Assembly: GCA_035461245.1 (NCBI GenBank)
Contig: DATHVP010000008.1
Location: forward strand, 6,000-69,999
Source of the DNA: Longimicrobiales bacterium
Lineage (GTDB): Bacteria > Gemmatimonadota > Gemmatimonadetes > Longimicrobiales > RSA9
Direction: 5' to 3'
DNA: 64,000 nucleotides
A program made the position numbers and the translations under genes. Under the pieces are notes generated by a model. It saw nothing but the letters and a program-made list of their open reading frames with translations. It was not told the origin of the DNA and searched no databases. Positions 2,432 to 27,947 of this stretch are shown in pieces; positions within the stretch are counted from its first letter, which is position 1; every line of letters starts with the position of its first letter.

Positions 2432-3853
2432 ATGAAGCGGACGTACTGTCGAAGCTTTCGCGCCGTCCTGGTGCTGGCCGTTGCTTCAGCCGTGGGCTGC
2501 GAACCTGACGTGGTATATCGGGACCCGGTGCTGTACGACGCACCGCCTGCCGGTGCAGGTGACTTCCTGGGCTACTCGGCAGCGGCAACAAAGCGCACGG
2601 TGTGCGGTAACTGCCACATAGGGAAACAGCGGGAGTGGGAAGAGACGGCCCACGCTGATGCCTGGGCCACACTGGCGCAGAGTGGCGCCATGCAGCCGTT
2701 GTGTCAGGAGTGTCATACGGTCTCGTCACGGGGCAACGTAGTTGCCACTCCCAGTGTCGGGTGGCCGGCCACACAGAACGCGCGCTACCGGGACGTACAG
2801 TGTGAGGCGTGCCACGGCCCGGGCCTGCTCCATGTAATGAACCCGGACGCGCGAGGGAATCGCCCGCTGGCCCCGGTGGCAGTGGCGGCGGACCCGGCCT
2901 GGGGTTGCGGCCAGTGCCACTCAGGCGCGCACCGACCTTATGCCGAGGAATGGGCGGGATCGCTGCACGCCAGGCAGGTCGGCTCCCGCAGCACGAACGT
3001 GAACTGCATTGGTTGCCACGAGGCGAAGGGCGTGCTGCGCGCCTGGGGGGTGAAGTCGACGATTCTCGAGGAGACGACTGATGCAGGTCACATGGCGATC
3101 ACGTGCGTGGTCTGCCATGACCCGCATGATGCTCGGAACAGCGGGCAGTTGCGCTTCCCCATGGATGTCCCGTCGGTGCAGGAGAACCTGTGCATGAAGT
3201 GCCACCAGCGCAGGGGCACACCGGACCTGGCCTCTCAGTCGGCCGGCCCGCATTCGCCCGAAGGTCCGCTGCTCCTCGGTGAGGCAGGCTGGCTGCCACC
3301 AAACTTCGAGTATCCGGCGGGCGCACTGGTGGGGAGCCACGGCAGTGACAGGAACCCGCGCCTGTGCGCCACCTGCCACGTCACCGATTACCAGGTGCAC
3401 GACCCGATCACCAGCGCTTCGGGATTCCGCGCGACGGGGCACAGCTTCCAGGCGATCCCGTGCGTGGATGACGGCGGCGTGCCCACCGGCGAGCGTTCGT
3501 GTGAGATGACCCAGCGTTCCTTCCGTAGCTGCACGAGTTGCCACCTCACTGAAACTGCAGCGCGGGCGGCCCTCAGTGTGGCCGAGATGCGCATCAGCCG
3601 ACTGGCGGGCGAAATCGGCAGCATGCTGCCGCGCATCGCTGCCTCCGAGTTCAGCAACACCGACAACCGGTACACGACGGCGGAGGGTGCGCGCTTCAAC
3701 ATGCAACTGGCTCAGAAGAAGGGCTCGGTCGCCCACAACCCGTTCCTGCTGGAGGCGCTGCTCCTGGCCAGCATACGGCAGATCGAGATCGACTACGGCA
3801 TCAGGCCATCCGCTGCAGTGTCACTGCAGGCGGAGCTGACGCAGCACGACTGA
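2432..3853 (+). CDS. nonahaem c-type cytochrome, probable lipoprotein
   Basis: Nine CxxCH motifs are present (CGNCH, CQECH, CEACH, CGQCH, CIGCH, CVVCH, CMKCH, CATCH, CTSCH). The start was moved from 2282 to ATG 2432, giving MKRTYCRSFRAVLVLAVASAVGC, a signal peptide with a lipobox-like AVGC. Confidence 0.9.
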   Translation: MKRTYCRSFRAVLVLAVASAVGCEPDVVYRDPVLYDAPPAGAGDFLGYSAAATKRTVCGNCHIGKQREWEETAHADAWATLAQSGAMQPLCQECHTVSSRGNVVATPSVGWPATQNARYRDVQCEACHGPGLLHVMNPDARGNRPLAPVAVAADPAWGCGQCHSGAHRPYAEEWAGSLHARQVGSRSTNVNCIGCHEAKGVLRAWGVKSTILEETTDAGHMAITCVVCHDPHDARNSGQLRFPMDVPSVQENLCMKCHQRRGTPDLASQSAGPHSPEGPLLLGEAGWLPPNFEYPAGALVGSHGSDRNPRLCATCHVTDYQVHDPITSASGFRATGHSFQAIPCVDDGGVPTGERSCEMTQRSFRSCTSCHLTETAARAALSVAEMRISRLAGEIGSMLPRIAASEFSNTDNRYTTAEGARFNMQLAQKKGSVAHNPFLLEALLLASIRQIEIDYGIRPSAAVSLQAELTQHD

Positions 3854-3946
3854 TGGATCCAGACTCGGATGGGCGGCGGCCGGACCCCTACCCCGGCCCT
3901 GCCGGTGCCGGCTCGCCGCCCACCGAGTGGCTCGCAGAGGAAGGTC

Positions 3947-4801
3947 ATGCATGTGACTGCCGGATCCGGGAGGCCATACCGCTGGCCATTCACTGCAGCT
4001 GCCGTACTGCTGGCATCGCTGGTGCTGGTGACCGCGGGCGCGGCCATGCTTTCAGTCCGGAATGAGTCCCGCGCCGTGCATGCGGCTGGTTCCGGTGCCG
4101 TCTATTCGACCGGTGCGCACCCAGCGTTGCCCGCTGGCGCCGGGCCTGCCATCGCCGCCTCGAACGACCGCACGATTGCGAGCGTCCCGACGCCGGTGGC
4201 CGAGACCACCCGGCGGCGCGCGTTCGACCACGCTGTGCATGAATCCGTCAGCTGCACACGCTGCCATGGCGCGGGTGGTGAGCATCGAGCCCTGCTGGTG
4301 CGCGGCCCCGCGGACTGCGCTGCCTGTCACCACGACGACGCGGCCCCGCGCATCTGCAGCGATTGCCATGCACTGGCAGGGCTGCCTGAGCCAGGCCATG
4401 TCATCCTTCGACTTGCCCTGGGCGTTTGGGCGGCGCCGCAGGAGCGGGAGCTGCCCTTCGGTCACGCCGTGCACGGCGCGGTTGATTGCCGTGAATGCCA
4501 CCAACGCCCCGTGACGCTTGCCATGGAACGCAGCTGCGGGTCCTGCCACGAGGCGCACCACTCCGCTGCATCCGATTGCGCGGCGTGTCATGGGCCGGCA
4601 ACAGCGCGGGCGGAGCACGTTCACGGTGCCCGCGTGCACCTGTCGTGCGAGGGTGCGGGCTGCCATGCGGGTGCCGTTGCGCCTGCGCCGGACCTGTCGC
4701 GCAGTCTCTGCATCGCCTGCCACGCGCCGCAGGTCGAACACGAACCGGGCGAGGCCTGCGCCCGCTGTCACCTGCTCGCGGCAGCGGGAGGTGCCCCGTG
4801 A
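3947..4801 (+). CDS. multihaem c-type cytochrome (c3/c7-type repeats), N-terminal membrane anchor or signal
   Basis: Eight CxxCH motifs are present (CTRCH, CAACH, CSDCH, CRECH, CGSCH, CAACH, CIACH, CARCH), plus one CX4CH (CEGAGCH). There are F-x-H-x2-H...CxxCH units (FDHAVHESVSCTRCH, FGHAVHGAVDCRECH). ATG 3947 is preceded by AGAGGAAGG. The hydrophobic N-terminus reads FTAAAVLLASLVLVTAGAAML. Confidence 0.85.
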   Translation: MHVTAGSGRPYRWPFTAAAVLLASLVLVTAGAAMLSVRNESRAVHAAGSGAVYSTGAHPALPAGAGPAIAASNDRTIASVPTPVAETTRRRAFDHAVHESVSCTRCHGAGGEHRALLVRGPADCAACHHDDAAPRICSDCHALAGLPEPGHVILRLALGVWAAPQERELPFGHAVHGAVDCRECHQRPVTLAMERSCGSCHEAHHSAASDCAACHGPATARAEHVHGARVHLSCEGAGCHAGAVAPAPDLSRSLCIACHAPQVEHEPGEACARCHLLAAAGGAP

Positions 4802-6273
4802 GATGCAGGCTTCCAGCCATGGCCGGCCTGCTGCTGCCAGGCGTGCTGGCCGCCGCTCCGCTGGGTGCGCAACAGGTCCGCGTGACCGGCGCCTCCACCA
4901 TGAGATACATCGAGCTGCGGCCATTGGCCCGGGACAGCGTGGCGGAGGACCAGGTGCCTGGTTCCGGGCTGCTGCGCCAGTTGCCTGACGGCCGCACCGT
5001 CCGATGTGTGCCCGGGGATCCCTTCTGTCGTTACTCTCGTCCGGGCGAGCGGGTGGCCGCCGTGCCGCTGCTGCAGGACCTCGAAGCCAGCGCATGGGGA
5101 CTCGGCCGCGGCGTCCGGGGTTTTGCGCACCTCCGCATGCGCAGCGCATTGGGTGGAAGCGCCGGCATCTGGCCCCAGGAGGACGACGCTGTCGAACTGC
5201 TGGCCGCGTACGCCGAACTTGAGCGCACGCGGTACCGGATCCGTGCCGGTCGGCAATGGCAGGTATCCGGACTTGGTTTCTACAATTTCGATGGCATGAA
5301 TGCCGGCGGCGAGCCCGTGGCGCGAACCTGGGTCGAAGTGTACGCCGGACGCAGTCTGGTCCGGGGCATGAATGAATCCCGCGCCGGTGGCGCCCTCGAG
5401 GCCATCGAGGAATTCGCGCCGGCGGCGCACGGTATCATCGCCGGTGCCCACGCCCGCTACCGCCCCGCCACGGGCGTGGCGCTGTCCGCGTCGTATCAGG
5501 CGGACTTCCGAAGTGATGGTGCCGGGCTGTTCGCGGAGCTCGCCGCTCTGCATGCCTCGTGGCAGGGCGGCGCGGCGTCCGTCGAAGTGGCAGTGGAGAC
5601 GGATGTTGCCACTCTCGGACTCAACGAGGCGCGCGTGTCGGTGCATGCATCGCCCCGGGGGCCAGTGGCGCTCCACGGCGAGCTTCGGCGCTACCGCCCC
5701 TACTTCGAGCTGTGGACGATCTGGGGCGCGTTCTCACCCGTCGGCTTCGACGAAGCGCGTTTCGGCGCGACCTGGGCGGCCTCTGGTCGCAGGCTGCTGT
5801 TCCGCACGGACCTCGCGCACCGCCGCTACGGTGATGCCGGGGTGGCCAATTCCCTTGATGAGTTCCGCGGCAGCGGCTGGGGTGTCCTGGTTGGTGGAAC
5901 CTGGCTGCCGGCGCCCGCCTGGCGTGTAGATGGCGCGTATCGGGTGGAGGCGGGATTCGGCGCGGCCCGCCGGGACGGTCATGCGGGCGTCACGCGCCGG
6001 CTCGGTACTGCGGGCTCCCTGTCACTGCAGGCTCTGGCCTTCCAGCGTCTCTACGAGTTTCGTCTCGACGAGGGCACTGTCCGTGGCGTGACGGCGGAAC
6101 TGGCGCTGCCCCTCCTGCCCCGGGCGACGCTGTTCGCCACCGGCGCGGCGTATCGGCACCCCGCTGGCCGCTCCGGCGGGGTCGACTGGAACCAGCGCCG
6201 TGGCAGCCTGCGTCTCCAGTGGATGCTCGGTTCGGAACCGTCGCTACCCGCCTGGAATGGAGGTGGGCAATGA
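4798..6273 (+). CDS. predicted outer-membrane beta-barrel protein (family not recognised)
   Basis: GTG 4798 is preceded by GGGAGG (4786-4791) and overlaps the upstream stop (GTGA); ATG 4819 is the alternative start. The Sec-type N-terminus reads VRCRLPAMAGLLLPGVLAAAPLGAQQ. There are no long hydrophobic helices. Many short amphipathic Tyr/Trp/Arg/Gly-rich stretches occur (YRIRAGRQWQVSGLGFYNF, WRVDGAYRVEAGFG, SLSLQALAFQRLYEF, GSLRLQWML). Confidence 0.55.
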   Translation: MRCRLPAMAGLLLPGVLAAAPLGAQQVRVTGASTMRYIELRPLARDSVAEDQVPGSGLLRQLPDGRTVRCVPGDPFCRYSRPGERVAAVPLLQDLEASAWGLGRGVRGFAHLRMRSALGGSAGIWPQEDDAVELLAAYAELERTRYRIRAGRQWQVSGLGFYNFDGMNAGGEPVARTWVEVYAGRSLVRGMNESRAGGALEAIEEFAPAAHGIIAGAHARYRPATGVALSASYQADFRSDGAGLFAELAALHASWQGGAASVEVAVETDVATLGLNEARVSVHASPRGPVALHGELRRYRPYFELWTIWGAFSPVGFDEARFGATWAASGRRLLFRTDLAHRRYGDAGVANSLDEFRGSGWGVLVGGTWLPAPAWRVDGAYRVEAGFGAARRDGHAGVTRRLGTAGSLSLQALAFQRLYEFRLDEGTVRGVTAELALPLLPRATLFATGAAYRHPAGRSGGVDWNQRRGSLRLQWMLGSEPSLPAWNGGGQ

Positions 6274-7709
6274 CGCGCGCCCGGCTGCTGCAGGCGGGAA
6301 CGGCGCTCGCTGTGCTCGCCGCCGGCGCCGGCCTGGTGCGAGGCGCACCGGGCGGCGGCGACCTGTTCCCCCATGCCGTGCATGAGCGCCTGTTCCCTGT
6401 GTGCGAGAGCTGTCACGCAGGCGTGTTCGCCGATGAACCGGCTGCCGCGTTCCCGCAGCCGGCCCACTGCCGCCACTGCCACGATGGTGTGAGGGCGGAC
6501 TCCGTTGCCTGGACCGGGGCCGCACCCCGCGTGTCCAACCTCCGCTTCTCCCATGGGCAGCATGGGAGGGCACTGGCGGCAGCGGGTGAACCTGCAAGCT
6601 GCCAGGCCTGTCATGCCCGGGGCGGCGAGCCGGCGCGCATGGACGTCGGTGCCGCCACCGCCGAGCGCTGCATCGCCTGCCACGAACACAGTGCGACGAC
6701 GCACATGGCGCTGCCCGCCGATTGCAGCCGCTGCCACCTGCCGCTGGATCGGGTGGCGGAACTGAGCGCCGGCCGCATCGCCCGCTTCCCGCGACCGCCC
6801 TGGCACGAAGCGGACGACTTCATACTGACGCACGCAACGACGGCCGCACCGGCCGATGCGTCGTGCGGCGTCTGTCACGCCCGCCAGACGTGCGAGCGCT
6901 GCCATGCCAATGCGTCGGCCCTGGCCGCGGTCATGGCGCTGCCGCAGGACACCCGCGTGGCGCAACTGGAACGCGGACGGCCGGCTGTGTATCCGCTGCC
7001 GGCAGGACATGCCGCGGCGGACTGGCACCTGGCCCACGGTACGGCTGCCCGTGCCGCCGTCGGTTCCTGCGCCAACTGCCACACGCGACCCAGTTGCACG
7101 GCATGCCATGCGGGCGGTGACGGCCGTGCGCTCGCGCTGGTGGCGCAGCTGCCGCCGGTGGCGCCCGGCGCGGCACCGGGCGTGGATCCTGCGCGCATCA
7201 CGCGAGGCGTGCATGGCGCCGATGTCCGGCTGCAGCACGGCCGCCTGGCGGCGTCCGGGCAACTGGACTGCGCCCAGTGCCACGCCCGTGCCGAATGCTC
7301 CGAGTGCCACGCCGCAGCGGACTCCCGCGCGTTCCACCTGCCGAACTTCGTGGAACGGCACGCCGTGGATGTCTTCACCGGCCGCGGCGAGTGCCAGGCC
7401 TGCCACAGCACCGACACATTCTGCCGTGCCTGCCATGCACAGGCGGGCATTGCCTCCGGCGACATGAAAGCGGCGTTCCATGATGGCCAGCCCATGTGGG
7501 TGCTATCCCATGGCCGCGCCGCGCGACTGGGCCTGGAGGCCTGCGCTTCCTGCCACCGGCAGAGCGACTGCGTGCAGTGCCATTCGGCGGCGGGCGGCTG
7601 GGGGGTCAACCCCCACGGCCCGGGTTTCACCGGCCGGGGCGAGTCCCGCAGTGCAGCCAGCTGCCGGCTCTGTCACCTGGCCAGCCCGCCGAGAGGAAGT
7701 GGATCATGA
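6270..7709 (+). CDS. 16-haem c-type cytochrome (polymer of c3/c7-type units), periplasmic
   Basis: Sixteen CxxCH motifs were counted by eye. Paired units recur, such as SCGVCHARQTCERCH, SCANCHTRPSCTACH, DCAQCHARAECSECH, ECQACHSTDTFCRACH and ACASCHRQSDCVQCH. The signal peptide reads MTRARLLQAGTALAVLAAGAGLVRG. ATG 6270 overlaps the barrel stop (ATGA). Confidence 0.9.
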   Translation: MTRARLLQAGTALAVLAAGAGLVRGAPGGGDLFPHAVHERLFPVCESCHAGVFADEPAAAFPQPAHCRHCHDGVRADSVAWTGAAPRVSNLRFSHGQHGRALAAAGEPASCQACHARGGEPARMDVGAATAERCIACHEHSATTHMALPADCSRCHLPLDRVAELSAGRIARFPRPPWHEADDFILTHATTAAPADASCGVCHARQTCERCHANASALAAVMALPQDTRVAQLERGRPAVYPLPAGHAAADWHLAHGTAARAAVGSCANCHTRPSCTACHAGGDGRALALVAQLPPVAPGAAPGVDPARITRGVHGADVRLQHGRLAASGQLDCAQCHARAECSECHAAADSRAFHLPNFVERHAVDVFTGRGECQACHSTDTFCRACHAQAGIASGDMKAAFHDGQPMWVLSHGRAARLGLEACASCHRQSDCVQCHSAAGGWGVNPHGPGFTGRGESRSAASCRLCHLASPPRGSGS

Positions 7710-10006
7710 GTGTCGATCGGCGCATGTTCCTCAAGGGTGCCGCAGTGGCGTCGGCGGCGGCCATCGCACCCGCAGGCCTGGCCGCCGCTGCCGGGTCCCG
7801 CGCCAGGCAGGTGCCGGAATGGCACCGGGCCCCCTGTCGCTTCTGCGGTATCGGCTGCGGCCTGCTCGTCGCCGTGCAGGACGGTCGCGCAGTCGCGGTA
7901 AGGGGAGACCTCGAATCGCCAGTGAACCGCGGGATGGCATGCGTGCGCGGTTACCATGCCATCCACACGCTGTACGGGCGGGACCGCGTCACCAGCCCGC
8001 TCATACGTCATGCAGGCAGGCTCGTGGCGGCAACCCCCGCCGACGCGTACGACCTCATCGCGGGGCGGATCAAGGAGGTCGTCGCCAGCCAGGGTGCGGA
8101 TGCCACAGGCGTGTACGGCTCCGGTCACTGGAGCGTGACGGACGCGTACGTGGCGGCGAAGCTGTTCAAGGCCGGGCTCGGCACGAACAACGTGGACACC
8201 AGCACGCGGCTCTACCACGCTTCTGCCACGGCCGGATTCCTGAGCACCTTCGGCCAGCCGGGGGCACCCGGCTGCTTCGCCGACGTCGAGTTCGCGGACA
8301 CGTTCGTGCTGTGGGGCCACAACATGGCCGAGACCGATCCGGTGCTCTTCTCCCGCATCCTGGAGCGGCGGCGGACCAGTCCCGCCGTGCGCATCATAAC
8401 CCTCGGCACGCAGGCCACGCGCACCAGCTACGCTGCTGATCGCGCCCTGCTGCACCGGCCGCATGCGGAGATCGCCCTCGCCAACGCCATATGCAGCGCC
8501 GTGGTCCGGCGTGGCGGGGTGGACAGGAACTTCGTGAGCCGCCATGTCGCCTTTGCCAGGGGCACGGACGCTCCCGGCTACGGTGCGCATGAGCAGGTCA
8601 CTGTCACCGACGACGTCGTTCCCTCGACGTTCGACGCGTTCGTACGGTTCCTCGAGGACTATCGACCGGAGCAGATGGAGGCCGCTACCGGCGTGGCGGC
8701 CGCCGACCTCAACTGGCTCGCCGCGCTGTATGCCGATCGTGGACGGAAGGTGCTGTCCGTCTGGGGCAGCGACCTGAACCAGCACGTGCGTGGCACCTGG
8801 CTGAACAACGCGCTGCACAACATCCACCTGATCACCGGCAAGGTCGCGTCACCGGGGAACGGCGCCCTGTGTTGCGCCGCTCAGCCGGGCGGTGCCGATG
8901 CCGTCCACGCAGCCGGCGCCACGCCCGATGGACTGCCCCGCGGCTCCGTCTCCAGCGCTGCCGACAGGCAACACGCCGCCCGGATCTGGGGCGTGCCGGC
9001 CAGCCGCATCAGTGCCCAGCCGGGCCGGACGGCCCTGGCCATGTTCCGCGGCGTGGAGAGCGGCGCCATGCGCTTCCTCTGGGTGCAGGCCACGAACCCG
9101 CTGGCCAGCCTGCCGAACGCCCGGCGCTACCGGCGGGCGGTAGCCGACGGGAACGCGTTCCTTGTGGTGACAGAAGCGTATCCAACCGTCACTTCTGCCG
9201 CCGCCGATGTGGTACTGCCTGCCGCCCTGTGGCTGGAGCGGGAAGGCGTGTACGGCAGCAGTGAGCGGCGCAGCCAGTACTTTCCGCGGGTCGTCCCCGC
9301 GCCCGGCTCCGCAAGGGCCGATGGCTGGCACATGGTCGAGGTCGGCCGGCGGCTGGGCTTCGGCGCACTGCTGCCGTGGCAGGAGCAATCCCTCGTGGCC
9401 GATGCCTGGGCAGAACTGATCCGCTTCCATCCGACGGCGCAGCCGGTGTCCCTTGCCGTGATGCGTAACGGTCCGGGCGCCATCTGGCCGTTCGGTGGTG
9501 AGCAGGAGGCGGGCTGGCGCTACAGCACCGCACACGATCCTGGCACCGATCGGTCCAGGGGCGCATTCCACTTCTACGGCTACAGTGACGGGCGTGCACG
9601 CATCTGGCTTCGGCCTCACGAGCCGCCGGCGGAAATGCCCGACGAACGCTACCCCTTCTGGCTCACCGTGGGGCGTGTACTCGAACACGGCGGGACGGGC
9701 ACGCTTACCCGCCGCGTGCCCGCGCTGCAGCGCGCCGTGCCGCGTGCGTACGTCGAACTGAGTCGGAAGGACGCGACAGCACTGGGCATCCGCGACGGCG
9801 AGCGCGTGCGCCTGGTGACACGCCGAGGGTCGCTGGAGATGGATGCGCGCATAGAGCACCGCAGCCAGCCCCAGCAGGGCCAGGTTTTCGTGCCGTGCTT
9901 CGATGAAGACGCGCCCGTCAACCTGCTGACTCTCGATGCATGCTGCCCGCTAGCCGGACAGCCGGACTACGGCAAGTGCGCCGTGCGCGTGGAGCGCCTG
10001 ACATGA
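7706..10006 (+). CDS. Tat-exported molybdopterin oxidoreductase catalytic subunit, NapA-like but lacking the Cys Mo ligand
   Basis: The twin-arginine signal reads MSVDRRMFLKGAAVASAAAIAP. The FS0 4Fe-4S motif is PCRFCGIGCG...NRGMACVRGY. The C-terminus is NapA-like (VFVPCFDEDAPVNLLTLDACCPLAGQPDYGKCAVRVE). The segment TRLYHASATAGF aligns with the NapA ARHCMASA motif (see findings). ATG 7706 overlaps the upstream stop (ATGA). Confidence 0.9.
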   Translation: MSVDRRMFLKGAAVASAAAIAPAGLAAAAGSRARQVPEWHRAPCRFCGIGCGLLVAVQDGRAVAVRGDLESPVNRGMACVRGYHAIHTLYGRDRVTSPLIRHAGRLVAATPADAYDLIAGRIKEVVASQGADATGVYGSGHWSVTDAYVAAKLFKAGLGTNNVDTSTRLYHASATAGFLSTFGQPGAPGCFADVEFADTFVLWGHNMAETDPVLFSRILERRRTSPAVRIITLGTQATRTSYAADRALLHRPHAEIALANAICSAVVRRGGVDRNFVSRHVAFARGTDAPGYGAHEQVTVTDDVVPSTFDAFVRFLEDYRPEQMEAATGVAAADLNWLAALYADRGRKVLSVWGSDLNQHVRGTWLNNALHNIHLITGKVASPGNGALCCAAQPGGADAVHAAGATPDGLPRGSVSSAADRQHAARIWGVPASRISAQPGRTALAMFRGVESGAMRFLWVQATNPLASLPNARRYRRAVADGNAFLVVTEAYPTVTSAAADVVLPAALWLEREGVYGSSERRSQYFPRVVPAPGSARADGWHMVEVGRRLGFGALLPWQEQSLVADAWAELIRFHPTAQPVSLAVMRNGPGAIWPFGGEQEAGWRYSTAHDPGTDRSRGAFHFYGYSDGRARIWLRPHEPPAEMPDERYPFWLTVGRVLEHGGTGTLTRRVPALQRAVPRAYVELSRKDATALGIRDGERVRLVTRRGSLEMDARIEHRSQPQQGQVFVPCFDEDAPVNLLTLDACCPLAGQPDYGKCAVRVERLT

Positions 10007-10851
10007 GGGCCCGCGCCCGCGGCCTGACGGCAGGCGCCCGCGTCCTGACTGCTGGCGCTGCAGCGGCTGGTGCGTGGCTGCTGCTGTGGGGCCTCAACGG
10101 TGCCCTCGAACGGCGCGTCGCAGGGCGGCTCATGCATGTTGCGATGCCTGCCGGCGCTGGCCCCGCGGATGTTCGCCATGCGGCTGACCTGCCTGGCGCT
10201 CGCCTCATCGCACCGGCTGCGCCCATCGCTGCCGAAGCGCTCGTGTTCCGCTCCACCCCTGCGGCCGTGGCCTCAGCCGTCGCCGTGGTGCGGAGGGCGG
10301 ACGCTCACCCCCGGACACTGGCGACATATCGGTCCCTGCGCGCCTATCCGGGAGCGCCGCCACGGGTGCCACACGGCCTTACCATCGAAGAGTTCCGGCA
10401 GTCTTCCTGCAACAACTGTCATGAGCGAGGCGGTTACGCGCCGCGTTTCGGTGCGTATGTCCCGGTCACGCCCCACCCCGAGCGCGCCGGCTGCCTGCAA
10501 TGCCACGCCACGGACGCGACGGTGGTTGGCCGGCCGCTGCCGGACGACCGGCCCGACGCACTGTGCCGCCAGTGCCATGCCGCCCTTGCCGCCGCGCCGG
10601 CAGAGCGCGGACCTGCCTGGCCGGCCGCGGCATGGCCCGAGGTGCGGGGCAGTGCCGACGGCGCGCCGCCCGACATCCCCCACGACGTGCAGCAGCGGGG
10701 CAATTGCCTGGCATGCCACATGGGGCCGGCGGCAGTGGCGGAGATCCGCACGACCCATCCCGACCGGACGAACTGCAGGCAGTGCCACCTGGCCCCCGCC
10801 GAAGGCTGGTGGCCTACATTGTCGCCCCCGTCGTCGACAGGTCTGCCATGA
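10003..10851 (+). CDS. pentahaem cytochrome c made of two NapB-like dihaem units plus one extra haem
   Basis: The first unit is PPRVPHGL...CNNCH...THPERAGCLQCH and the second is PPDIPHDV...CLACH...THPDRTNCRQCH. Both match the NapB pattern (PP-x-IPH...C-L-x-CH...H...C-x-QCH, recalled from memory). CRQCH lies between them. ATG 10003 overlaps the upstream stop (ATGA). Confidence 0.7.
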   Translation: MRARARGLTAGARVLTAGAAAAGAWLLLWGLNGALERRVAGRLMHVAMPAGAGPADVRHAADLPGARLIAPAAPIAAEALVFRSTPAAVASAVAVVRRADAHPRTLATYRSLRAYPGAPPRVPHGLTIEEFRQSSCNNCHERGGYAPRFGAYVPVTPHPERAGCLQCHATDATVVGRPLPDDRPDALCRQCHAALAAAPAERGPAWPAAAWPEVRGSADGAPPDIPHDVQQRGNCLACHMGPAAVAEIRTTHPDRTNCRQCHLAPAEGWWPTLSPPSSTGLP

Positions 10852-11594
10852 CGCGACTCTGCTCGATCATCTTCCTCGGCGCCGCCGTCACCTGGTCGGG
10901 CTGCACCCGCGGCGATGCCGCCCGCCCTGAGCACGTCGCCGCCGATGCGCCGTCTCTGTCCGCGGCAGTGCCGACGCTGGCGGCTGCAGAACCCGCTCCT
11001 GCCCACGCCGGCGATGACGGGCCGATCCTGGAGCCGGGACAGCTGCGCAGCCTGCGCACCGCCGTCGTGCACGGCCGCACGGGTCCTGACGGGGCGCCGT
11101 TCGACGTGACGCTGCGCACACCCGGGGATGCTGGCCATGCGCGCCGCTTCGGCACGCACACCATCGACATCGCGCTGCGCTCCGGCGACGTGGGCGTCAT
11201 CCAGTATCCGTGCACCGCCTGCCACCTCGGCCGTGCCCTGGACCTGCAGGAGGAGCGCATGGCCGGCGCCCATGCGGACCTGCAGGTGACGCATCCCCGA
11301 GAGACGGGGGCTGCATGCCGCACCTGCCACTCCGCTGACAACGTCGAACTGCTGGCCCTGCGCAGTGGGGAGCAGACCACACTCGACCACGCGTACCGGA
11401 TCTGCGCTCAGTGCCATTTCAGCCAGGCGGATGCGTGGGCTGCCGGGATCCACGGCAAGCGACTGGACGGCTGGCAGGGCCGTCGCGTCGTCATGGGCTG
11501 CACCGATTGCCACGACCCCCACGCGCCCGCACTGCATGTGCGCCTGCCGTTCCGGCCGCCCGCCTTGCCCAGCACCGGGAGACGCCAGCCATGA
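10848..11594 (+). CDS. tetrahaem c-type cytochrome, probable lipoprotein (NrfB/ActA-like role)
   Basis: Four CxxCH motifs are present (CTACH, CRTCH, CAQCH, CTDCH). The signal reads MTRLCSIIFLGAAVTWSGC, with a lipobox-like WSGC. ATG 10848 overlaps the upstream stop (ATGA). Confidence 0.8.
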   Translation: MTRLCSIIFLGAAVTWSGCTRGDAARPEHVAADAPSLSAAVPTLAAAEPAPAHAGDDGPILEPGQLRSLRTAVVHGRTGPDGAPFDVTLRTPGDAGHARRFGTHTIDIALRSGDVGVIQYPCTACHLGRALDLQEERMAGAHADLQVTHPRETGAACRTCHSADNVELLALRSGEQTTLDHAYRICAQCHFSQADAWAAGIHGKRLDGWQGRRVVMGCTDCHDPHAPALHVRLPFRPPALPSTGRRQP

Positions 11595-12709
11595 TTGCCG
11601 AATCAAGCCGGGAGTTCCGCCTGGAGGACCTGCTGCGCCGTGTCGCCGCCGATGCGGATGCGTCCATGTCTGACCCGACAGCCGCTGCCACTGCCAGCGG
11701 GCCGCCCGCGTCCCGGCAGCAGTCCGCCCGTCCACCCTGCGCCGGTGAGGACGGCTGCAGTGGCTCGTGCAGCGGGGATCGCGGGACGCTGGCTGGGAAG
11801 CCGGTGGACCGGCGCAGGGCGCTGGGGATGCTCCTGGTTGGTGCGGGCGCCGGTGTCCAGGCCGCCTGCGCACCCGCAAGTGCGGCCACTGATGAGGAGC
11901 GTGAGGTGAAGCTGCTCCAGTGGCGCGAGTACATCAAGAACAACTACCGGCGGATGACGGAGCACGAACGCGCTGACACCATCCAGCGCCTGGAACGGCT
12001 GGCGCAGCTGCGCAGCGGAGTGAATGTCCTGATACAGGACACGCCTGCGCAGCCGGGCGTCATGTTCGGTTACGCGTTCAACATCAGCAAGTGCAAGGGG
12101 TTCCGCAGCTGTGTCGAGGCCTGCATCAACGAGAACAACCTGGATCGACGCGCGGATACCCACTACATCCGCATCTTCGAGATGGAGAACGGCGTCCTCG
12201 ACCTTGATCACGGGGACGCTACTTTCGCCCATGAGGTCCCGGCCGCCGGGCATTTCTACCTCGGCACGCAGTGCTTCCAGTGCGCCAACCCGCCGTGCGT
12301 CAAGGTCTGCCCCGTGGGCGCGACCTGGCAGGAGCCTGACGGCATAACCGTCGTCGATTACGACTGGTGCATCGGCTGCCGGTACTGCATGGCCGCCTGC
12401 CCGTACTGGGCTCGCCGCTTCAACTGGGGCCAGCCCGAAGTGCCGGCCCAGGAGGTCAACCCGAACCAGCACTACCTCGGGAACCGGGCGCGCAGGAAGG
12501 GCGTCGTCGAAAAGTGCACGTTCTGCATCCAGCGTTCACGGGAAGGCCGGCTGCCCGCCTGTGCCGAGGCATGCCCCACAGGTGCACGCGTGTTCGGCAA
12601 CCTGCTGGACCCCGGTTCCGAGATCCGCTGGGTGCTGGAGAACAGGAACGTGTTCCGCCTGAAGGAAGACCTGAAGACCGAACCGCGGTTCTGGTACTTC
12701 ACCGACTGA
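11591..12709 (+). CDS. 4Fe-4S ferredoxin-type subunit of the NrfC/PsrB/DmsB family with an internal Tat motif
   Basis: Cluster motifs are present: CKGFRSCVEAC, CFQCANPPCVKVCP, CIGCRYCMAACP, CTFC...CAEACP. DRRRALGMLLVGAGAG is twin-arginine-like. ATG 11591 overlaps the upstream stop (ATGA). The N-terminal roughly 70 aa are unusual (see findings). Confidence 0.9.
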   Translation: MIAESSREFRLEDLLRRVAADADASMSDPTAAATASGPPASRQQSARPPCAGEDGCSGSCSGDRGTLAGKPVDRRRALGMLLVGAGAGVQAACAPASAATDEEREVKLLQWREYIKNNYRRMTEHERADTIQRLERLAQLRSGVNVLIQDTPAQPGVMFGYAFNISKCKGFRSCVEACINENNLDRRADTHYIRIFEMENGVLDLDHGDATFAHEVPAAGHFYLGTQCFQCANPPCVKVCPVGATWQEPDGITVVDYDWCIGCRYCMAACPYWARRFNWGQPEVPAQEVNPNQHYLGNRARRKGVVEKCTFCIQRSREGRLPACAEACPTGARVFGNLLDPGSEIRWVLENRNVFRLKEDLKTEPRFWYFTD

Positions 12710-12746: not shown

Positions 12747-14075
12747 GTGATCATGCATCTCCTCGCGTTCCTGCGAACCGCCGTCACCTCCGCCACATCG
12801 GGCGGCTGGCGCTACCGCGCGTGGCTGCTCGTGCTGGCCGCCACCATATCGGTCGGCGCCATGGCGTATGGCATCCAGTTGCGCGACGGGCTGATCGTCA
12901 CGGGCATGAACGACCACGTGAGCTGGGGACTCTACATCTCCAACTTCACCTTCCTCGTCGGCCTCGCCGCCGCCGCCATGATGCTGGTGCTGCCCGCGTA
13001 TGTGCTCAGGGACGTGGACTTCGCGCGCGCCGTACTCATGGCGGAAGCCGTCGCCGTCGCCGCCCTCGTCATGTGCCTGCTCTTCGTCGTCGTGGATGTT
13101 GGCAATCCCATGGCCGGCTGGCATCTCATGCCCGTCATCGGCTCGCTGAACTGGCCCAGCTCACTGCTGGCCTGGGACGTCATCGTGCTCCACGGGTACC
13201 TCGCCCTCAACCTGGCCATACCATTCTACATCCTCTACTCCAGGTACACCGGGCGCGTACCGGACAAGCGCAAGTACCTGCCATGGATGTACGTGGCGGT
13301 CATGTGGGCCGTAAGCATCCACCTGGTGACGGCGTTCCTTTTGGCCGGGCTGCCCGCTCGCCCGTTCTGGAACACCGCCCTGCTCGGCCCGCGCTTCCTC
13401 GCCTCCGCGTTCACTGCTGGCCCGGCGTTCGTGATCCTGCTCCTCTACTTCATCCGCAGCCAGACACGGTACGAGATCAGTGATGGAGCATTCACGAAGC
13501 TCGCACTCATCACGACAGTCGCCGCCCAGATCAACCTGGTGATGCTGGGCTCCGAGCTGTTCTACAAGTTCTATGCGCCCACTCACCACGGCATCAATGC
13601 GAAGTACCTGTTCCTCGGGCTGGATGGCGCGAACGCACTTGTACCGTGGATCTGGTCGGCCATTGCCCTGAACGTTCTGGCGACGCTGGCGCTGTCCATC
13701 CACCCGCTGCGCCGCAACCCTCGCACGCTCATGGTTGCATGCGCTGTCCTGTTCATTGCCATCTGGGTGGAGAAGGGCATCGGGCTCGTGATACCGGGGT
13801 TCGTGCCGTCTCCCCTCGGCGAGATCGTGGAGTACTCGCCCACCTGGATCGAGCTGGCGGTGACGGCCGGCGTCTGGGCCGTGGGCCTGCTGGTCCTGAC
13901 CGTCCTCGTCCAGGTGGCGCTGCCCATCGAGCTCGGCCTCGTGCGCAGTCCCTACATTCACGCCGACCGGCAAGCCGGCGTCATCAGGCCGCGCCTGACG
14001 CGAACACAGGGCGTTCGCCGCGACGAACGGCCCACCGACCGGAATCGGGGCGGGCGCCCCGTACGCACACGCTGA
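12747..14075 (+). CDS. NrfD/PsrC-family integral membrane quinol-interacting subunit
   Basis: The protein is polytopic, with about 10 hydrophobic helices. The N-terminal region is typical of the NrfD family (GMNDHVSWGLYISNFTFLVGLAAAAMM). It follows an NrfC-like gene. The start is GTG 12747, or alternatively ATG 12753. Confidence 0.85.
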   Translation: MIMHLLAFLRTAVTSATSGGWRYRAWLLVLAATISVGAMAYGIQLRDGLIVTGMNDHVSWGLYISNFTFLVGLAAAAMMLVLPAYVLRDVDFARAVLMAEAVAVAALVMCLLFVVVDVGNPMAGWHLMPVIGSLNWPSSLLAWDVIVLHGYLALNLAIPFYILYSRYTGRVPDKRKYLPWMYVAVMWAVSIHLVTAFLLAGLPARPFWNTALLGPRFLASAFTAGPAFVILLLYFIRSQTRYEISDGAFTKLALITTVAAQINLVMLGSELFYKFYAPTHHGINAKYLFLGLDGANALVPWIWSAIALNVLATLALSIHPLRRNPRTLMVACAVLFIAIWVEKGIGLVIPGFVPSPLGEIVEYSPTWIELAVTAGVWAVGLLVLTVLVQVALPIELGLVRSPYIHADRQAGVIRPRLTRTQGVRRDERPTDRNRGGRPVRTR

Positions 14076-15887: not shown

Positions 15888-15982
15888 GGCCAGTCCCCGC
15901 ACAAGGTTCGGTATGCCTCCCGACGGCGCTCCCGGTCGTAAAATCATACCTTTAGGTGCGAAATCAAACACGGGAGGATTTC

Positions 15983-16993
15983 ATGACGAACATGCGAACG
16001 ATAATGGCTGGTACGGCTGCGGCCGTGGTGATTGGAACGGCGGGCTACGCCATGACGACGCAAGGCAGTGAGGAAGTGGAGTACACTGATTTCGGCGTGG
16101 TGACCACCACAACCGATCCAGCGTGGGATGCGCGGGTCATGCCGGCGTCCTCGGCGCCGGTGAAGGAGTTCCGCATCCCGATGACGCACGTGGAGATCGA
16201 GATTGCGCCGGGCGTGACGTACGAGGGCTGGACCTTCGGCAACACGGTGCCGGGCCCGACCATCCGGGTGAACCAGGGGGACCTGGTGAAGGTGACGCTG
16301 GTGAATGAGAGCGACATGCCACACAGCATTGACTTCCACTCGGCGCGGATTCCCATGGACGTGGCGTTCAAGACCATTGGCCCGGGCGAGGAGCTGGAGT
16401 TCGAGTTCGTGGCAAACGATCCGGGCGCGTTCATGGTGCACTGCGGCACGCCGCCGGTCCTGATGCACATCATGCAGGGCATGTACCTGCCGATCATCGT
16501 GGACCCGAAGGGTGGCTGGGGCACGCGTGCGGACAAGGAGTTCGTCATCGTGCAGAGCGAGTTCTACACCCAGGAGCGGGATGGCAGGCATGTCCCCGAC
16601 TGGAACGCTGCGCTGGCGAAGAACGCGTCATATGTGGTGTTCAACGGCCGTGCGGACCAGTACCAGGCCGCGCCGCTGGAGGTGGACGTGGGTGACCGGG
16701 TCCGGTTCTTCGTGGTCAACGCCGGCCCGAGCGTGCACAGTGACTTCCACGTGGTGGGCGCCGTTTTCGACCGGGTCTACCCTGGCGGCAATCCGAAGCA
16801 CGTCATCGAGACGGTCCAGACGTGGACGGTCCCGGTGGGTGGCGGTGCGGTGTTCGAGACTGAGTTCAATGCCGGCGCCAGCGGTGAGGGTGTATACGCC
16901 TTCGTGACACATGCCTTCGCGGACGCGAGCAAGGGTGCGGTGGGCCTGGTCAAGGTCGGCCAGCCGACCATCGCGGCGGGCATGTCCCACTGA
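15983..16993 (+). CDS. nirK: copper-containing nitrite reductase
   Basis: The protein has a two-cupredoxin size. Copper motifs are present: HSIDFH (T1 His, catalytic Asp, T2 His), VHCGTPPVLMHIMQGM (T2 His-T1 Cys...His...Met), DFHVVGAVFDRVY (catalytic His) and AFVTHAF (T2 His). GGGAGG lies 5 nt upstream of ATG 15983. Confidence 0.9.
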   Translation: MTNMRTIMAGTAAAVVIGTAGYAMTTQGSEEVEYTDFGVVTTTTDPAWDARVMPASSAPVKEFRIPMTHVEIEIAPGVTYEGWTFGNTVPGPTIRVNQGDLVKVTLVNESDMPHSIDFHSARIPMDVAFKTIGPGEELEFEFVANDPGAFMVHCGTPPVLMHIMQGMYLPIIVDPKGGWGTRADKEFVIVQSEFYTQERDGRHVPDWNAALAKNASYVVFNGRADQYQAAPLEVDVGDRVRFFVVNAGPSVHSDFHVVGAVFDRVYPGGNPKHVIETVQTWTVPVGGGAVFETEFNAGASGEGVYAFVTHAFADASKGAVGLVKVGQPTIAAGMSH

Positions 16994-17044
16994 GGCAGCG
17001 GGGTCGCACCGGAGACGGTGCGGCCCTCTCCATCCGGAGGATCC

Positions 17045-17512
17045 ATGAATACCCGAACCACACCGGCGCCGACGGCCTGGCGCATGATCTCACAGACGGC
17101 GGAATACGCGCTGCGGGTGGTGCTGTACCTGGCGGCGCGGCCGGCGGGCGAGCGGGTCGGCGCATCACGGGTGGCGGCAGAGCTGGGCATACCAGAGCGC
17201 TACCTCGCCCGGGTGATGAATGCGCTGGCCCGGGACGGCGTGCTCCTGTCGGCCCGGGGTGCCCAGGGTGGTTTCAGCCTGGCTGTCCTGCCAGCGGCGC
17301 TGACGCTGGGCGCGGTGGTGGCGCCGTTCGACGCGGTGGGCCAGGCCCCGCAGTGCCTGCTGCGGGAGCAGCGGTGTGACCCGTCCGATCCGTGCCTCGC
17401 CCACGAGCACTGGCACTGTATAGCCGGCGGGGTGCGGCACTTCTTCCAGACAACGACAATTGCGGACCTGCTGGGTGACGAGCTCACGTCGCCATTGGCG
17501 CTCCGGCACTAA
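17045..17512 (+). CDS. Rrf2-family transcriptional regulator (NsrR/IscR-like, three-Cys cluster site)
   Basis: The wHTH core reads ISQTAEYALRVVLYLA...ELGIPERYLARVMNALARDGVLLSARGAQGGFSL. The cluster-ligand pattern is CLLREQRCDPSDPC (C-x6-C-x5-C). A GGAGG RBS is present. Confidence 0.85.
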   Translation: MNTRTTPAPTAWRMISQTAEYALRVVLYLAARPAGERVGASRVAAELGIPERYLARVMNALARDGVLLSARGAQGGFSLAVLPAALTLGAVVAPFDAVGQAPQCLLREQRCDPSDPCLAHEHWHCIAGGVRHFFQTTTIADLLGDELTSPLALRH

Positions 17513-22568: not shown

Positions 22569-23872
22569 GGGCGAATCCTCCAGAGCAGAAGCATCTGTGA
22601 TGCGACGATCGCCGTGCCCGTGACGAACACCAGCGCCGCCGCGCGGGCGGGCTGTGCCATGCCCAGGCCGATGGCAACGAGCAGGGCGGCGGCACCCGCC
22701 AGCAGCGCCGCGACCGCGGCGTTGGCCAGCGTCGCCGAGTAGAGGTCCTGAACCCGTGGCACGGGACGGCGCCCGGCCAGCGGACCGAACCGGTGGTACC
22801 ACACCAGGAACGGCACGATCTTGTAGTAGTGCGCGACGACGAACAGTGACACCGCCAGGAGGATGGCCGTCACGTACGTCACCGCCAGCACGCCGCGGTT
22901 TGCCAGGATGATGACGGGTCCAGCCAGGAGCATTGCCGCCACCAGGAACAGGAGCGCGCCGGCGGCCAGCCGCATGCCGGGATCCAGGACGCGACGGTGT
23001 CGCGTGACGTAGAATGCTCTGGCCTGCAGCAGGAACGCGCCGCACCCGGCGGCGATGAGCACCGCCGGCAGCCAGTAGCTCACCAGGCGTGGCGCATGGT
23101 GCAGGAACGCCAGCACGCCGCTACCGGAGGCGACCAGCGCTACGGCCGCCTTCGCGAAGCGGTCCTGTGCGCCATGGCTCAGCAGGAACATGGGCAGCAG
23201 CCGGTGTCCCACGCCGATCATGACCAGCAGCACCCAGCCCGCCAGCGCCACGTGCAGGTGCACGCCCAGCGCAGCGAGCCGCCCGCCGCCGAGGAAGCCC
23301 CAGCGCAGGTTGCCCGTGAGAGCCAGGCCGAGGACCAGGGTTACTGTCAGGTAGCACGTCGCCAGCGCCAGCGCCCACCACGTGACGTCCCGGCGCGTGG
23401 CCGACTTCAGTGTCGCCGCCAGGTTGCCAGCGAACAGCAGTACGCCCATGCCCATCACAACTGCTCCACCCAGCAGCAGCATCGGTCGCCCCGTCGCCAG
23501 CCCGGTGACGAATGCCAGCAGGCCGGGCACATGCAGGGCGAAGGTCACGTGCGCCAGTGTCACGGAGCGGATGGGACGGTCCAGCGCCACCGGCAGGAAC
23601 TGGTACAGCGCGCCCATGATGGACGTGGTGATCCAGCCCAGAGTGAACAGGTGGGTCAGCGCCGCCACCCGCGGCGACAGGTACTGGCCCGCCGCCAGGT
23701 CCGGCGCGTGCAATACCGCACCGGCGGCGCCCAGCAGCAGGAACCCGAGGGCAGCGGCGAAATGTTCGCCCGGCAGGATGGCCGGCGGTGCCTTCGACGA
23801 CGCCGACCCCGGCAGCGGCCCGGCGGCCGCGGGGCGCGCTGCCGCACTGCCCGCCACGGTCGCCGCGTTCAT
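22565..23872 (-). CDS. hypothetical 12-TM His-rich membrane protein
   Basis: The protein is 435 aa from ATG 23872, which overlaps the ctaA stop (ATGA). There are about 12 hydrophobic helices. His-containing helix motifs recur ([23 protein letters not shown]; [25 protein letters not shown]; [15 protein letters not shown]). No family was recognised. Confidence 0.6.
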
Positions 23873-25032
23873 GGCGTCGCCTCGGCCGTGCTCCGGCCGC
23901 CATGAACGCCCACGCGGGCCGTCAGCACCCGGTGCAGCCAGCAGAGCCACACGCCGAACAGCACCATCGCCATGCCCTGGTGGATGACACCGAGGCTCAC
24001 CGGCACCAGCAGAAGCAGCGTGGCGATGCCCAGGGCGTACTGCACCGCCATCAGCACCGCAAGCGCACCGGCATACCGCCGGGATGCCGGGTCCGTCACC
24101 CCCTCGCGCACCAGCATGAACAGCCCCACCACTGCCACAGCCAGCAGCGTCCCCAGCACCCTGTGCACCCACTGCACCGATGCGGGGTTCGCAACAAAGT
24201 TGTAGAGCACGGGCTCCAGGTGTAACAGCTCCGGCGGCGTCAGCCGCCCGCCCATCAGCGGGAATGTCGGGTAGAACTTGCCCGCCCGCAGACCGGCAAC
24301 GAAGGCGCCCCATACCACCTGCGCCGCCAGCAGCACCCCCGTCACTGCCAGGCCCCGCAGCATCATGCGGCGGGCAGCTGCCGGGAACTGCGCGGCGCCG
24401 CGGGTCGCCAGGTCACGGGCCAGCCAGACGGCCCAGCCGAAGATCAGGAACGCCAGGCTCAGGTGCGCCGCCAGCCGGAAATGGCTCACGCTCGGTCGGT
24501 CCACCAGCCCGCTCTTCACCATGAGCCAGCCCATCACCCCCTGCGCAGCGCCCAGGCCGAACAGCAGCAGCGCGCGACGCAGCATCGGACTCGTGAACCA
24601 GCCCCGCACCCAGAACACGACGAACGGCACCAGGAACACCAGCCCGATGCCACGCGCCAGCAGGCGATGGAAGTATTCCCAGAAGAAGATGAACTTGAAC
24701 TCCGACAGCGTCATGCCCTGACGCCACGTCTGGTACTCCGGGAACTGCCGGTACAGCTCAAACGTCGCCTGCCACTGCGCATCCGTCAGTGGCGGGATCA
24801 CGCCCATCAGCGGCTGCCAGTCTACTATGGAGAGCCCCGACAGCGTCAGCCGCGTTATGCCACCCACGATCAGCACCGCGAACGTCATGGCCGCAACGCT
24901 CCACAGCCACACCCGCATCGGCCGCCGCCGCGACTCCGGGATCGCCTCCGTCCAGTGTCCCGCCGACGCCACCGGTCCCGCTTCCGCCACCAGCGGCATC
25001 ACTGCTGCCTGCCCCATGTTCATCCGCTCCAT
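23869..25032 (-). CDS. ctaA: haem A synthase (COX15/CtaA family)
   Basis: COX15-type motifs are present (VGGITRLTLSGLSIVDWQPLMGVIPP, EFKFIFFWEYFHRLLAR, HRVLGTLL, VIHQGMAM). There are about 8 TM helices. Confidence 0.85.
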   Translation of the reverse strand: MERMNMGQAAVMPLVAEAGPVASAGHWTEAIPESRRRPMRVWLWSVAAMTFAVLIVGGITRLTLSGLSIVDWQPLMGVIPPLTDAQWQATFELYRQFPEYQTWRQGMTLSEFKFIFFWEYFHRLLARGIGLVFLVPFVVFWVRGWFTSPMLRRALLLFGLGAAQGVMGWLMVKSGLVDRPSVSHFRLAAHLSLAFLIFGWAVWLARDLATRGAAQFPAAARRMMLRGLAVTGVLLAAQVVWGAFVAGLRAGKFYPTFPLMGGRLTPPELLHLEPVLYNFVANPASVQWVHRVLGTLLAVAVVGLFMLVREGVTDPASRRYAGALAVLMAVQYALGIATLLLLVPVSLGVIHQGMAMVLFGVWLCWLHRVLTARVGVHGGRSTAEATP

Positions 25033-25177
25033 CCCTCGTGCCTGCCCCCGTCGCCCGCCGCCGCGTACGACGAAAATCGCACATCAAGGTATGAAATACT
25101 CGCCGCCGCGCTGTCGGAGGTTGTCAGACAGATGTGTGGGGGATTTCCCCGCAGCGAACAGCGGTGACGGCGGCGGA

Positions 25178-27288: not shown

Positions 27289-27405
27289 ACGACAGTGGTG
27301 TCGGGCTCACCCCTACATCACGTAGGGGAACCTCCCTATGGCGCACCACCGTCCGCCGGTATTATATCATATTCGCATGAGAAACTCAAATGGACGGCAG
27401 GGACC

Positions 27406-27915: not shown

Positions 27916-27947
27916 CAGGGATCCACCTATCAACTGGGGAGAGGACA

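Follow-up and report, generated by a model that had tools for sequence, protein, structure and literature searches.

Among the closest described counterparts of the locus reported here are the porin-cytochrome conduits of the Mtr and Pcc types. The MtrB barrel has 26 strands (PMC8415449), and the Pcc class is defined by gene-cluster architecture, its barrels sharing 8-100% identity and having 18-22 predicted strands (PMC4245776); for Pcc, electron transfer across a bilayer has been shown by purification and proteoliposome assay (PMC4282303). Gemmatimonadetes are absent from the phyla in the Pcc survey (PMC4245776) and also from the survey of the PCC3 and PCC4 clusters (PMC5566968), and the only Mtr report for the phylum concerns a singleton canonical MtrCAB, probably acquired horizontally (PMC8805035). 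Here we analyse a stretch of 64,000 nucleotides from a Longimicrobiales bacterium (Gemmatimonadota; GenBank assembly GCA_035461245.1, contig DATHVP010000008.1, positions 6,000 to 69,999, forward strand), called the window below, and within it a gene, X, that lies among three multihaem cytochrome genes, cytA, cytB and cytC. We consider it likely that X is the outer-membrane barrel, serving as sheath and docking platform, of a Gemmatimonadota-specific porin-cytochrome electron conduit. The features that carry this reading, in window coordinates, are the following.

4798-6273, + strand: X, a 491-amino-acid (aa) predicted outer-membrane beta-barrel of about 24 strands, plug-less (translation, AlphaFold2 model with DSSP, dyad alternation)
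4798-4872, + strand: predicted signal peptide of X, Sec-type, aa 1-25 (AlphaFold2 helix at residues 5-18; aligned homologue N-termini)
5005-5028, + strand: Cys pair C70-x6-C77 of X, at the end of the insertion between strands 2 and 3 (alignment, AlphaFold2 topology)
5695-5745, + strand: predicted extracellular loop L8 of X, aa 300-316, RPYFELWTIWGAFSPVG (conservation, AlphaFold2)
2432-3853, + strand: cytA, a 9-haem lipoprotein cytochrome with lipobox AVGC (9 CxxCH motifs; lipobox; Pfam)
3869-4801, + strand: cytB, a 9-haem cytochrome with 8 CxxCH motifs and one conserved CX4CH (motif count, alignment)
6270-7709, + strand: cytC, a secreted cytochrome with 16 haems at about 28 aa each (16 CxxCH motifs)

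Gene X and its predicted barrel

The open reading frame (ORF) of X encodes 491 aa with no internal stop. An earlier reading of this DNA, made from its letters alone (the sequence-only reading), had described a secreted product of about 490 aa here, joined by start/stop overlaps to an upstream 8-9-haem and a downstream 16-haem cytochrome gene, carrying an N-proximal Cys pair (RCVPGDPFCRY) and belonging to no family that it could name. All of this holds. A signal peptide is present; the GTG start of X (4798-4800) overlaps the TGA of the upstream gene (4799-4801) as GTGA, and the ATG of cytC (6270-6272) overlaps the TGA of X (6271-6273) as ATGA; the upstream cytochrome has 9 haems when its CX4CH is included, and 16 CxxCH motifs were counted in the downstream one; the Cys pair is C70/C77; and searches of X against Pfam and NCBIfam gave no match at E<=0.01. 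A Shine-Dalgarno sequence, GGGAGG, lies 6 nt 5' of the GTG. The public automatic call (ENA ERZ27272640, k141_31210) starts X 7 codons later, at ATG 4819, which gives 484 aa; a better signal peptide, MRCRLPAMAGLLLPGVLAAAPLGAQQ, results from the GTG start. In the homologue alignments the mature N-terminus is conserved from about AQ-(Q/S)VRVTG, and Q25 is invariant.

The fold was predicted with a single-chain AlphaFold2 model built on an alignment of 69 homologues, strands being assigned by DSSP. The model (predicted local distance difference test, pLDDT, 83.7; predicted template modelling score 0.77) consists of the signal-peptide helix followed by about 24 long antiparallel strands spanning residues 26-478. 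Counted back from the C-terminus, the connections on one side are of 2-5 residues, as expected of periplasmic turns, except at residues 50-75, where an insertion of 26 residues runs up to the Cys pair; those on the opposite side, among them loops of 13, 25, 17, 15, 8 and 9 residues, are as expected of external loops. The model holds no plug domain, since no inter-strand segment is longer than 26 residues. In a broader alignment of 92 sequences with 22-51% identity, all 24 strands alternate between a hydrophobic face and a polar, Arg-rich one (mean Kyte-Doolittle values +1.06 vs -1.17). The transmembrane barrel proposed from the sequence is thus borne out by about 24 modelled strands and by dyad alternation in every one of them, and we are highly confident in the prediction of X as a large outer-membrane barrel without a plug.

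An outer membrane in the host is supported by the window itself, which encodes TamA/TamB and a TonB-dependent receptor; the host is therefore a diderm. The TamA-like Omp85 protein (760 aa) and the 1878-aa TamB-like protein that follows it are encoded at 54930-62848 (+), and these genes show that the host has outer-membrane barrel assembly machinery.

Structural comparison of X with the PDB by Foldseek returned outer-membrane barrels of many kinds (MOMP, AlgE, chitoporin, OprD, FimD) at 7-13% identity, with TM-scores between 0.23 and 0.47. Normalised to the query, the highest scores (0.40-0.47) were those of the 24-strand FimD usher, and the 16-18-strand porins and AlgE among the listed matches scored 0.23-0.40. 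These matches are generic barrel similarity: no homology to a nutrient porin or an exporter, the alternative against which the sequence-only reading had set its proposal, emerged at these values, and the association of the family with cytochromes elsewhere is essentially universal (see below).

Two elements of X stand out in the alignments. The Cys pair, invariant in the 69 close homologues and present in 82 of the 92 diverse ones, is predicted by strand parity to be periplasmic, and a C70-C77 disulfide is probable. Loop L8 is the most conserved segment of the family (0.76 vs about 0.44 for the strands in the 92-sequence alignment), its motif FELWTIWGAF being near-invariant across overall identities of 22-51%. 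AlphaFold2 confidence is low at L8 residues 305-311 (pLDDT <50), as expected for a segment that becomes ordered only in a complex, and L8 is a candidate cytochrome-contact or lumen loop. Across the same 92 sequences the external loops are more conserved than the periplasmic turns, which is the opposite of what is typical of nutrient porins. Both the conserved external loops and L8 agree with a fixed protein partner on the outer side.

The family is large and, so far as its named members show, confined to Gemmatimonadota. X is a real coding gene: we found 463 homologues in a database clustered at 90%, and a profile search of 1.84 billion representatives gave 410 clusters (50% identity) at E<=1e-3 and 155 at E<=1e-30, the full-length members among the clusters listed being 450-520 aa long. 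A scan of one genome per GTDB species gave 191 relatives, of which the best 80 come from metagenome-assembled genomes (MAGs) labelled Gemmatimonadota, Longimicrobiales, Gemmatimonadales or unclassified 'bacterium'. When the 69 aligned homologues were searched against Pfam at E<=1, only stray generic hits below threshold appeared (Porin_4 in 2/69, OMP_b-brl in 6/69), and the family profile searched against all PDB sequences (hmmsearch, E<=10) found no barrel. A bridge to a known family by way of distant members was tried and rejected: these are about 450-520 aa long, without significant Pfam matches, and those with names are Gemmatimonadales.

Some genomes hold two barrel-cytochrome modules. 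L039 and L041 lie about 22 kb apart on OY970192.1, the 5.4-Mb chromosome of a Gemmatimonadales MAG, one with a short and the other with a long cytB, and L050 and L053 come from one Gemmatimonas MAG.

The cytochrome neighbours and the downstream chain

To see what accompanies X elsewhere, the proteins of the window were compared by BLASTP with all ORFs of 86 related loci. A cytC homologue directly follows X in 77/77 loci with enough flanking sequence, a cytB homologue directly precedes it in 75 of 78, and cytA has a homologue further upstream in 56 of 59. An independent count of CxxCH-rich ORFs places a cytochrome upstream of X in 76/77 loci. In the three loci without cytB before X (L023, L030 and L031), cytA directly adjoins X; in L023 and L030 a cytB-like gene stands after cytC instead, and in L031 BLASTP against the ORFs of the locus detected no cytB homologue. 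Even the most divergent of the branches sampled, with 22-28% identity, has the module, and 4-nt start/stop overlaps on either side of X are seen again in other loci. Three multihaem cytochrome genes thus nearly always flank X, two of them in translational coupling with it, and the co-occurrence with CxxCH-rich neighbours on which the sequence-only reading had staked its proposal is found downstream, upstream and at the cytA position alike. Genes outside the four-gene core vary; some loci carry cytochrome c maturation (ccm) genes, and a set encoding NapA-like, iron-sulfur (FeS) and NrfD proteins lies beside the core in a minority of loci, this window included.

In the distant relative L090 (2727-4052), two short cytochromes (254 and 139 aa) are called downstream of the barrel in place of a single 16-haem protein; the gene may be split or frameshifted, or the variant may be real.

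The lipobox Cys of cytA is kept in 56 of 65 homologues by regular expression, most of the others having a Cys at the same place, and the homologues across loci have 8-9 haems by CxxCH count. The protein has a Pfam MtrC/MtrF domain II/IV match above threshold (43 bits) and a partial DmsE-family match (51 bits, cutoff 192). Its only sequence relatives in the PDB are 6QVM (E 1e-8), which we take to be OmhA of Carboxydothermus ferrireducens, and 6I5B, which is OcwA (E 7e-7). OcwA is a nonahaem cell-surface terminal reductase of Thermincola potens (PMC6703420), and cytA is a candidate cell-surface terminal oxidoreductase.

Neither cytB nor cytC has a DmsE-family match. CytB, whose likely start is ATG 3947, has an N-terminal hydrophobic anchor or signal and packs 9 haems into about 204 residues, or about 23 aa per haem. 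Its homologues fall into two size classes, one of about 300 aa with 8-9 haems and one of about 650 aa with 17-19 haems. Short forms in several lineages (e.g. L021, L024-L029) carry a lipobox and a long Ala/Pro-rich linker. At the cytC position, 54 of the 59 scored neighbours have 16 haems. A low ratio of amino acids to haems has been discussed as a feature of wire cytochromes (PMC5566968), and by their sequences the haem density of both proteins appears wire-like; cytB is the candidate for the cytochrome inserted into the barrel, and cytC for a periplasmic wire.

In the window the series of overlaps continues beyond cytC. Six consecutive 4-nt overlaps (GTGA or ATGA) join cytB/X, X/cytC, cytC/NapA-like, NapA-like/cytD, cytD/cytE and cytE/FeS between 3869 and 12709 (+), which implies a translationally coupled chain of seven genes. 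The downstream genes are the following.

7706-10006, + strand: NapA-like molybdopterin subunit, 766 aa (NCBIfam NapA 690 bits, cutoff 904)
10003-10851, + strand: cytD, a 5-haem cytochrome with weak NapB similarity (library search, motif count)
10848-11594, + strand: cytE, a 4-haem lipoprotein cytochrome with N-terminus MTRLCSIIFLGAAVTWSGC (library search, motif count)
11591-12709, + strand: periplasmic 4Fe-4S protein of NrfC/DsrO/QrcC type (NCBIfam DsrO 188 and QrcC 151 bits; Pfam Fer4_11)
12747-14075, + strand: integral membrane quinone-interacting subunit of NrfD/DsrP type (NCBIfam DsrP 392 bits, cutoff 350; Pfam NrfD)

The NapA-like subunit scores 600 bits against Cupriavidus necator NapA (3ML1) and only 81 bits against the QrcB model, and it keeps a Tat signal and the N-terminal 4Fe-4S motif. 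The Cys that ligates Mo in 3ML1 (ARHCMASA) aligns to Tyr170 (TRLYHASA). In the orthologues compared that lie directly after the conduit genes (L006-L009, L011, L013, L014, L019), the residue aligned here is Y, Q, E, H or R; an opposite-strand copy in L038 has A, and the copies in L015, L016, L023 and L030 keep Cys-Met. A ligand position so unconstrained argues that catalysis has been lost, and the subunit is probably non-catalytic; the alignments suggest a NapA that has become a non-catalytic subunit, in the manner of QrcB or ActB. The gene is a lineage-specific add-on to the core. As judged from its encoded proteins, the downstream set resembles Qrc or alternative complex III (ACIII), and could plausibly provide the conduit with a quinol:cytochrome link.

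Upstream of cytA lie a two-component system and a promoter-like element.

40-690: C-terminus of a histidine kinase, before the response regulator (sequence reading)
683-2068, + strand: sigma-54-dependent (NtrC-type) response regulator (sequence reading: AAA+ region of GETGTGKE/GAFTGA type)
2320-2335, + strand: sigma-54-like -24/-12 element CGGCAC-N5-TTGC, 97 nt 5' of the cytA ATG and directly 3' of the regulator gene

The NtrC-type regulator is not conserved beside the cluster in most loci, and its control of the cluster is possible in this genome only. Sigma-54-like sites are in no excess in the window (35 vs 32.7 expected by chance), and for the element upstream of cytA it is the position alone that is, tentatively, suggestive.

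Just past the Band-7 gene that ends the operon, the window encodes a two-domain cupredoxin/multicopper protein (15956-16993, +; Pfam Cu-oxidase_2/3), NirK-like by sequence reading, followed by an Rrf2-family regulator (17018-17512, +). Further on, an unusual fusion at 25687-27288 (-) joins a cytochrome b domain at its N-terminus to an FlpD (MvhD-like) domain at its C-terminus and also carries two 4Fe-4S ferredoxin motifs; it lies near genes of haem-copper oxidase, CtaA, SCO1 and UbiA types (23869-32272).

A proposed conduit and the rival readings

In the conduit that we propose, a haem-dense wire cytochrome would fill the lumen of X and carry electrons across the outer membrane. CytB would be the likeliest lumen cytochrome; its gene adjoins X as mtrA adjoins mtrB. 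CytA would dock on the conserved external loops of X, notably FELWTIWGAF, and exchange electrons with extracellular substrates, and cytC would bridge the periplasm. In this window the Qrc/ACIII-like module (the degenerate NapA-like subunit, the 5- and 4-haem cytochromes, the FeS protein and NrfD) would tie the conduit to the quinone pool. Electrons could leave the cell for Fe(III), Mn(IV) or humics, or enter it from Fe(II) or another donor. The predicted barrel fold and the near-universal cytochrome neighbours support the suggestion, made from the sequence, of a sheath protein for a cytochrome conduit; the sheath role itself is what we infer.

Several results weigh against the conduit. The strand count of X was made by DSSP and includes two short strands, 2 and 3. 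MtrB is absent from the best 50 Foldseek matches of X, which are headed by porins, AlgE and ushers. The sequence-only reading had kept X apart from MtrB, and the profiles agree: hhalign of the X family profile with the MtrB sequence (6R2Q_B) gave a probability of 1.2% over 27 columns, that is no profile similarity, and MtrB_PioB matched none of the 69 members (E<=1) and none of 10 distant ones, the libraries searched including both Pfam MtrB_PioB and NCBIfam TIGR03509. Residues of X facing the lumen are not significantly more conserved than those facing lipid (0.447 vs 0.437). The AlphaFold2 model of cytB, built on 40 homologues, is poor (pLDDT 56), and Foldseek with it returned nothing at E<=0.001. 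Every sampled genome with the X family is a MAG. Finally, OcwA-type cytochromes reduce soluble substrates too (PMC6703420), and cytA could therefore act in the periplasm.

The last point leads to the strongest of the alternatives, which we nevertheless regard as improbable: X would be a large solute channel that admits a soluble substrate or redox shuttle (chelated metals, humic-like quinones, N or S oxyanions) to periplasmic multihaem enzymes, with cytA as a periplasm-facing, OcwA/NrfA-like reductase on the inner leaflet and no cytochrome in the barrel. The diffusion and export barrels among the top Foldseek matches (MOMP, chitoporin, AlgE, OprD), the weak Porin_4 or OMP_b-brl matches of a few members, the relation of OcwA-family cytochromes to reductases of soluble acceptors (PMC6703420) and the absence of preferential conservation in the lumen would all suit such a channel. 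By barrel geometry, however, a plug-less barrel of 24 strands with loops of at most 26 residues would be a very wide and unselective hole; conservation is highest in its external loops, an unusual pattern for a solute porin; the three cytochromes amount to 34-43 haems at wire-like density, far above what reduction of a soluble substrate needs; and their association with X is independent of any one enzyme neighbour. Less probable still is a translocon or anchoring platform, usher- or Slam-like, that would export cytA or hold it at the surface rather than ensheathe a haem wire. The conserved lipoprotein cytA must somehow reach the surface, the external loops offer a possible docking site, and it is the 24-strand FimD usher barrel that gives the best TM-scores; yet none of the 69 members matches Pfam Usher, DUF560/Slam or Omp85/TamA, and X has no plug, POTRA, TPR or periplasmic domain. 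Such a platform would leave unexplained the tight coupling to two non-lipoprotein wire cytochromes, kept even where the gene order is permuted, and the crossing of the outer membrane by electrons would still have to be explained.

It is very unlikely that the cluster is a periplasmic nitrate or oxyanion (Nap-like) respiratory operon to which X adds an outer-membrane accessory with no part in electron transfer. In this window X and its cytochromes are indeed followed directly by a NapA-like gene and a NapB-like cytochrome, with the NirK-like cupredoxin and the Rrf2 regulator nearby, but only a minority of loci have Nap-like genes beside the module, the four-gene core occurs without them, often beside ccm genes, and this lineage has lost the Mo-ligand Cys, whose position is unconstrained. 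A plain Nap operon was accordingly rejected as the main interpretation, the core being mostly without Nap-like genes and the Mo ligand lost here. The evidence above thus leaves the porin-cytochrome conduit as the reading that we prefer.

A broader scenario joins the core to the downstream chain, and we put it forward tentatively, as rather less likely to be right than wrong in all its parts. X, cytA, cytB and cytC would form the first Gemmatimonadota-native conduit for extracellular electron transfer, evolved independently of Mtr and Pcc, and here hard-wired by the six 4-nt overlaps to a quinone-coupled module that came from a Nap operon and lost the Mo ligand of NapA. The relatives with an intact NapA, L023 and L030, would preserve the ancestral state, in which electron uptake or delivery at the outer membrane was coupled to periplasmic nitrate reduction, for example in nitrate-dependent oxidation of extracellular Fe(II).

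Comparison with described systems

Gemmatimonadota are among the more abundant phyla of soils and sediments and are generally regarded as heterotrophs, aerobic or facultative. The literature that we searched, which left most subscription journals outside, yielded generic MAG surveys and the one MtrCAB, with no porin-cytochrome cluster and no native extracellular-electron-transfer machinery described for the phylum. If the proposed conduit is real, a phylum-wide module of a barrel and three cytochromes would give these bacteria a route for electrons to minerals, humics or partner cells, one that is invisible to current surveys based on hidden Markov models (HMMs) because the barrel matches no existing family. 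It would also add an independent solution to the crossing of the outer membrane by electrons, and so help in comparing the construction of such conduits. Porin-cytochrome families have been found by genomics before; the family of X is phylum-wide in an abundant, little-studied group, and here an unusual, degenerate NapA module accompanies it.

The ushers FimD and PapC, 24-strand barrels with an internal plug and periplasmic domains at both termini, resemble X in strand number (best query-normalised TM-scores 0.46-0.47), but X has no Usher Pfam match and no insertion longer than 26 residues, and is 491 aa long where ushers have about 800. The diffusion porins and AlgE, with 16-18 strands and HMMs of their own, differ from X in its approximately 24 strands, and the only HMM matches in its family are stray and sub-threshold.

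QrcB and ActB lack Mo. The downstream set shares with Qrc and ACIII one or more multihaem cytochromes, a ligand-less subunit of the molybdopterin family, a periplasmic FeS protein and a membrane subunit of NrfD type; it differs in that the Mo-family subunit is derived from NapA (600 bits to 3ML1) and not from QrcB or ActB, and in that relatives with the intact Cys-Met ligand motif still exist. The NapA-like subunit is thus a candidate snapshot of a catalytic molybdoenzyme becoming a structural subunit of a quinone module, as has been proposed for Qrc and ACIII.

CytA resembles OcwA and OmhA as a nonahaem and in sequence (E 1e-8 to 7e-7), and OcwA falls within a clade of nonahaems from Gram-negative bacteria (PMC7829351). 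CytA differs in being a diderm lipoprotein encoded next to a barrel, and only its residues 87-319 align. The PCC3 and PCC4 clusters of Fe(II) oxidisers are, like the present one, genomically inferred sets of a porin and multihaem cytochromes with haem-dense wires and an inner-membrane redox module, and PCC4 subgroup II also has an Fe-S protein (PMC5566968). Those clusters differ in host, being mainly from Proteobacteria, with Planctomycetes for PCC4, in having a five-transmembrane di-haem b protein as inner-membrane partner where NrfD/FeS stands here, and, for PCC3, in median haem numbers of 34 and 21 (PMC5566968).

The X cluster has the architecture that defines the Pcc systems (OmbB-OmaB-OmcB; ExtABCD, ExtEFG, ExtHIJKL), namely a porin-like protein, a periplasmic cytochrome of the 8-haem class and a lipoprotein outer-membrane cytochrome, with a barrel of similar length, and is likened to Pcc by architecture alone; the outer cytochrome is an OcwA-like nonahaem here and an OmcB-like dodecahaem there. 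The sequence-only reading had put the size of X in the range of the smaller Pcc porins rather than that of MtrB. This stands for chain length, MtrB having 695 aa (about 675 when mature) and X 491 (about 466), but not for strand number, which at about 24 is closer to the 26 of MtrB than to the 18-22 of Pcc, figures that are not strictly comparable since ours come from AlphaFold2 and those for Pcc from sequence predictors.

X lacks the 26 strands and 650-700 residues of the MtrB family; its neighbours have 9 (or 17-19) and 16 haems and are not MtrA/DmsE-type decahaems; and where MtrCAB combines 10 + 10 haems, the partners of X have 9, 9 (or 17-19) and 16, the third, 16-haem cytochrome being an obligatory neighbour. 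Both, on the other hand, set the gene of a large plug-less barrel beside genes for two cytochromes, one haem-dense and one a surface lipoprotein. The order of lipoprotein cytochrome, wire cytochrome and barrel is also shared, cytA-cytB-X corresponding to mtrC-mtrA-mtrB, as is an N-proximal Cys pair, CX6C in X and the N-terminal CXXC in MtrB. We infer from these likenesses that X works like MtrB, from outside the MtrB family.

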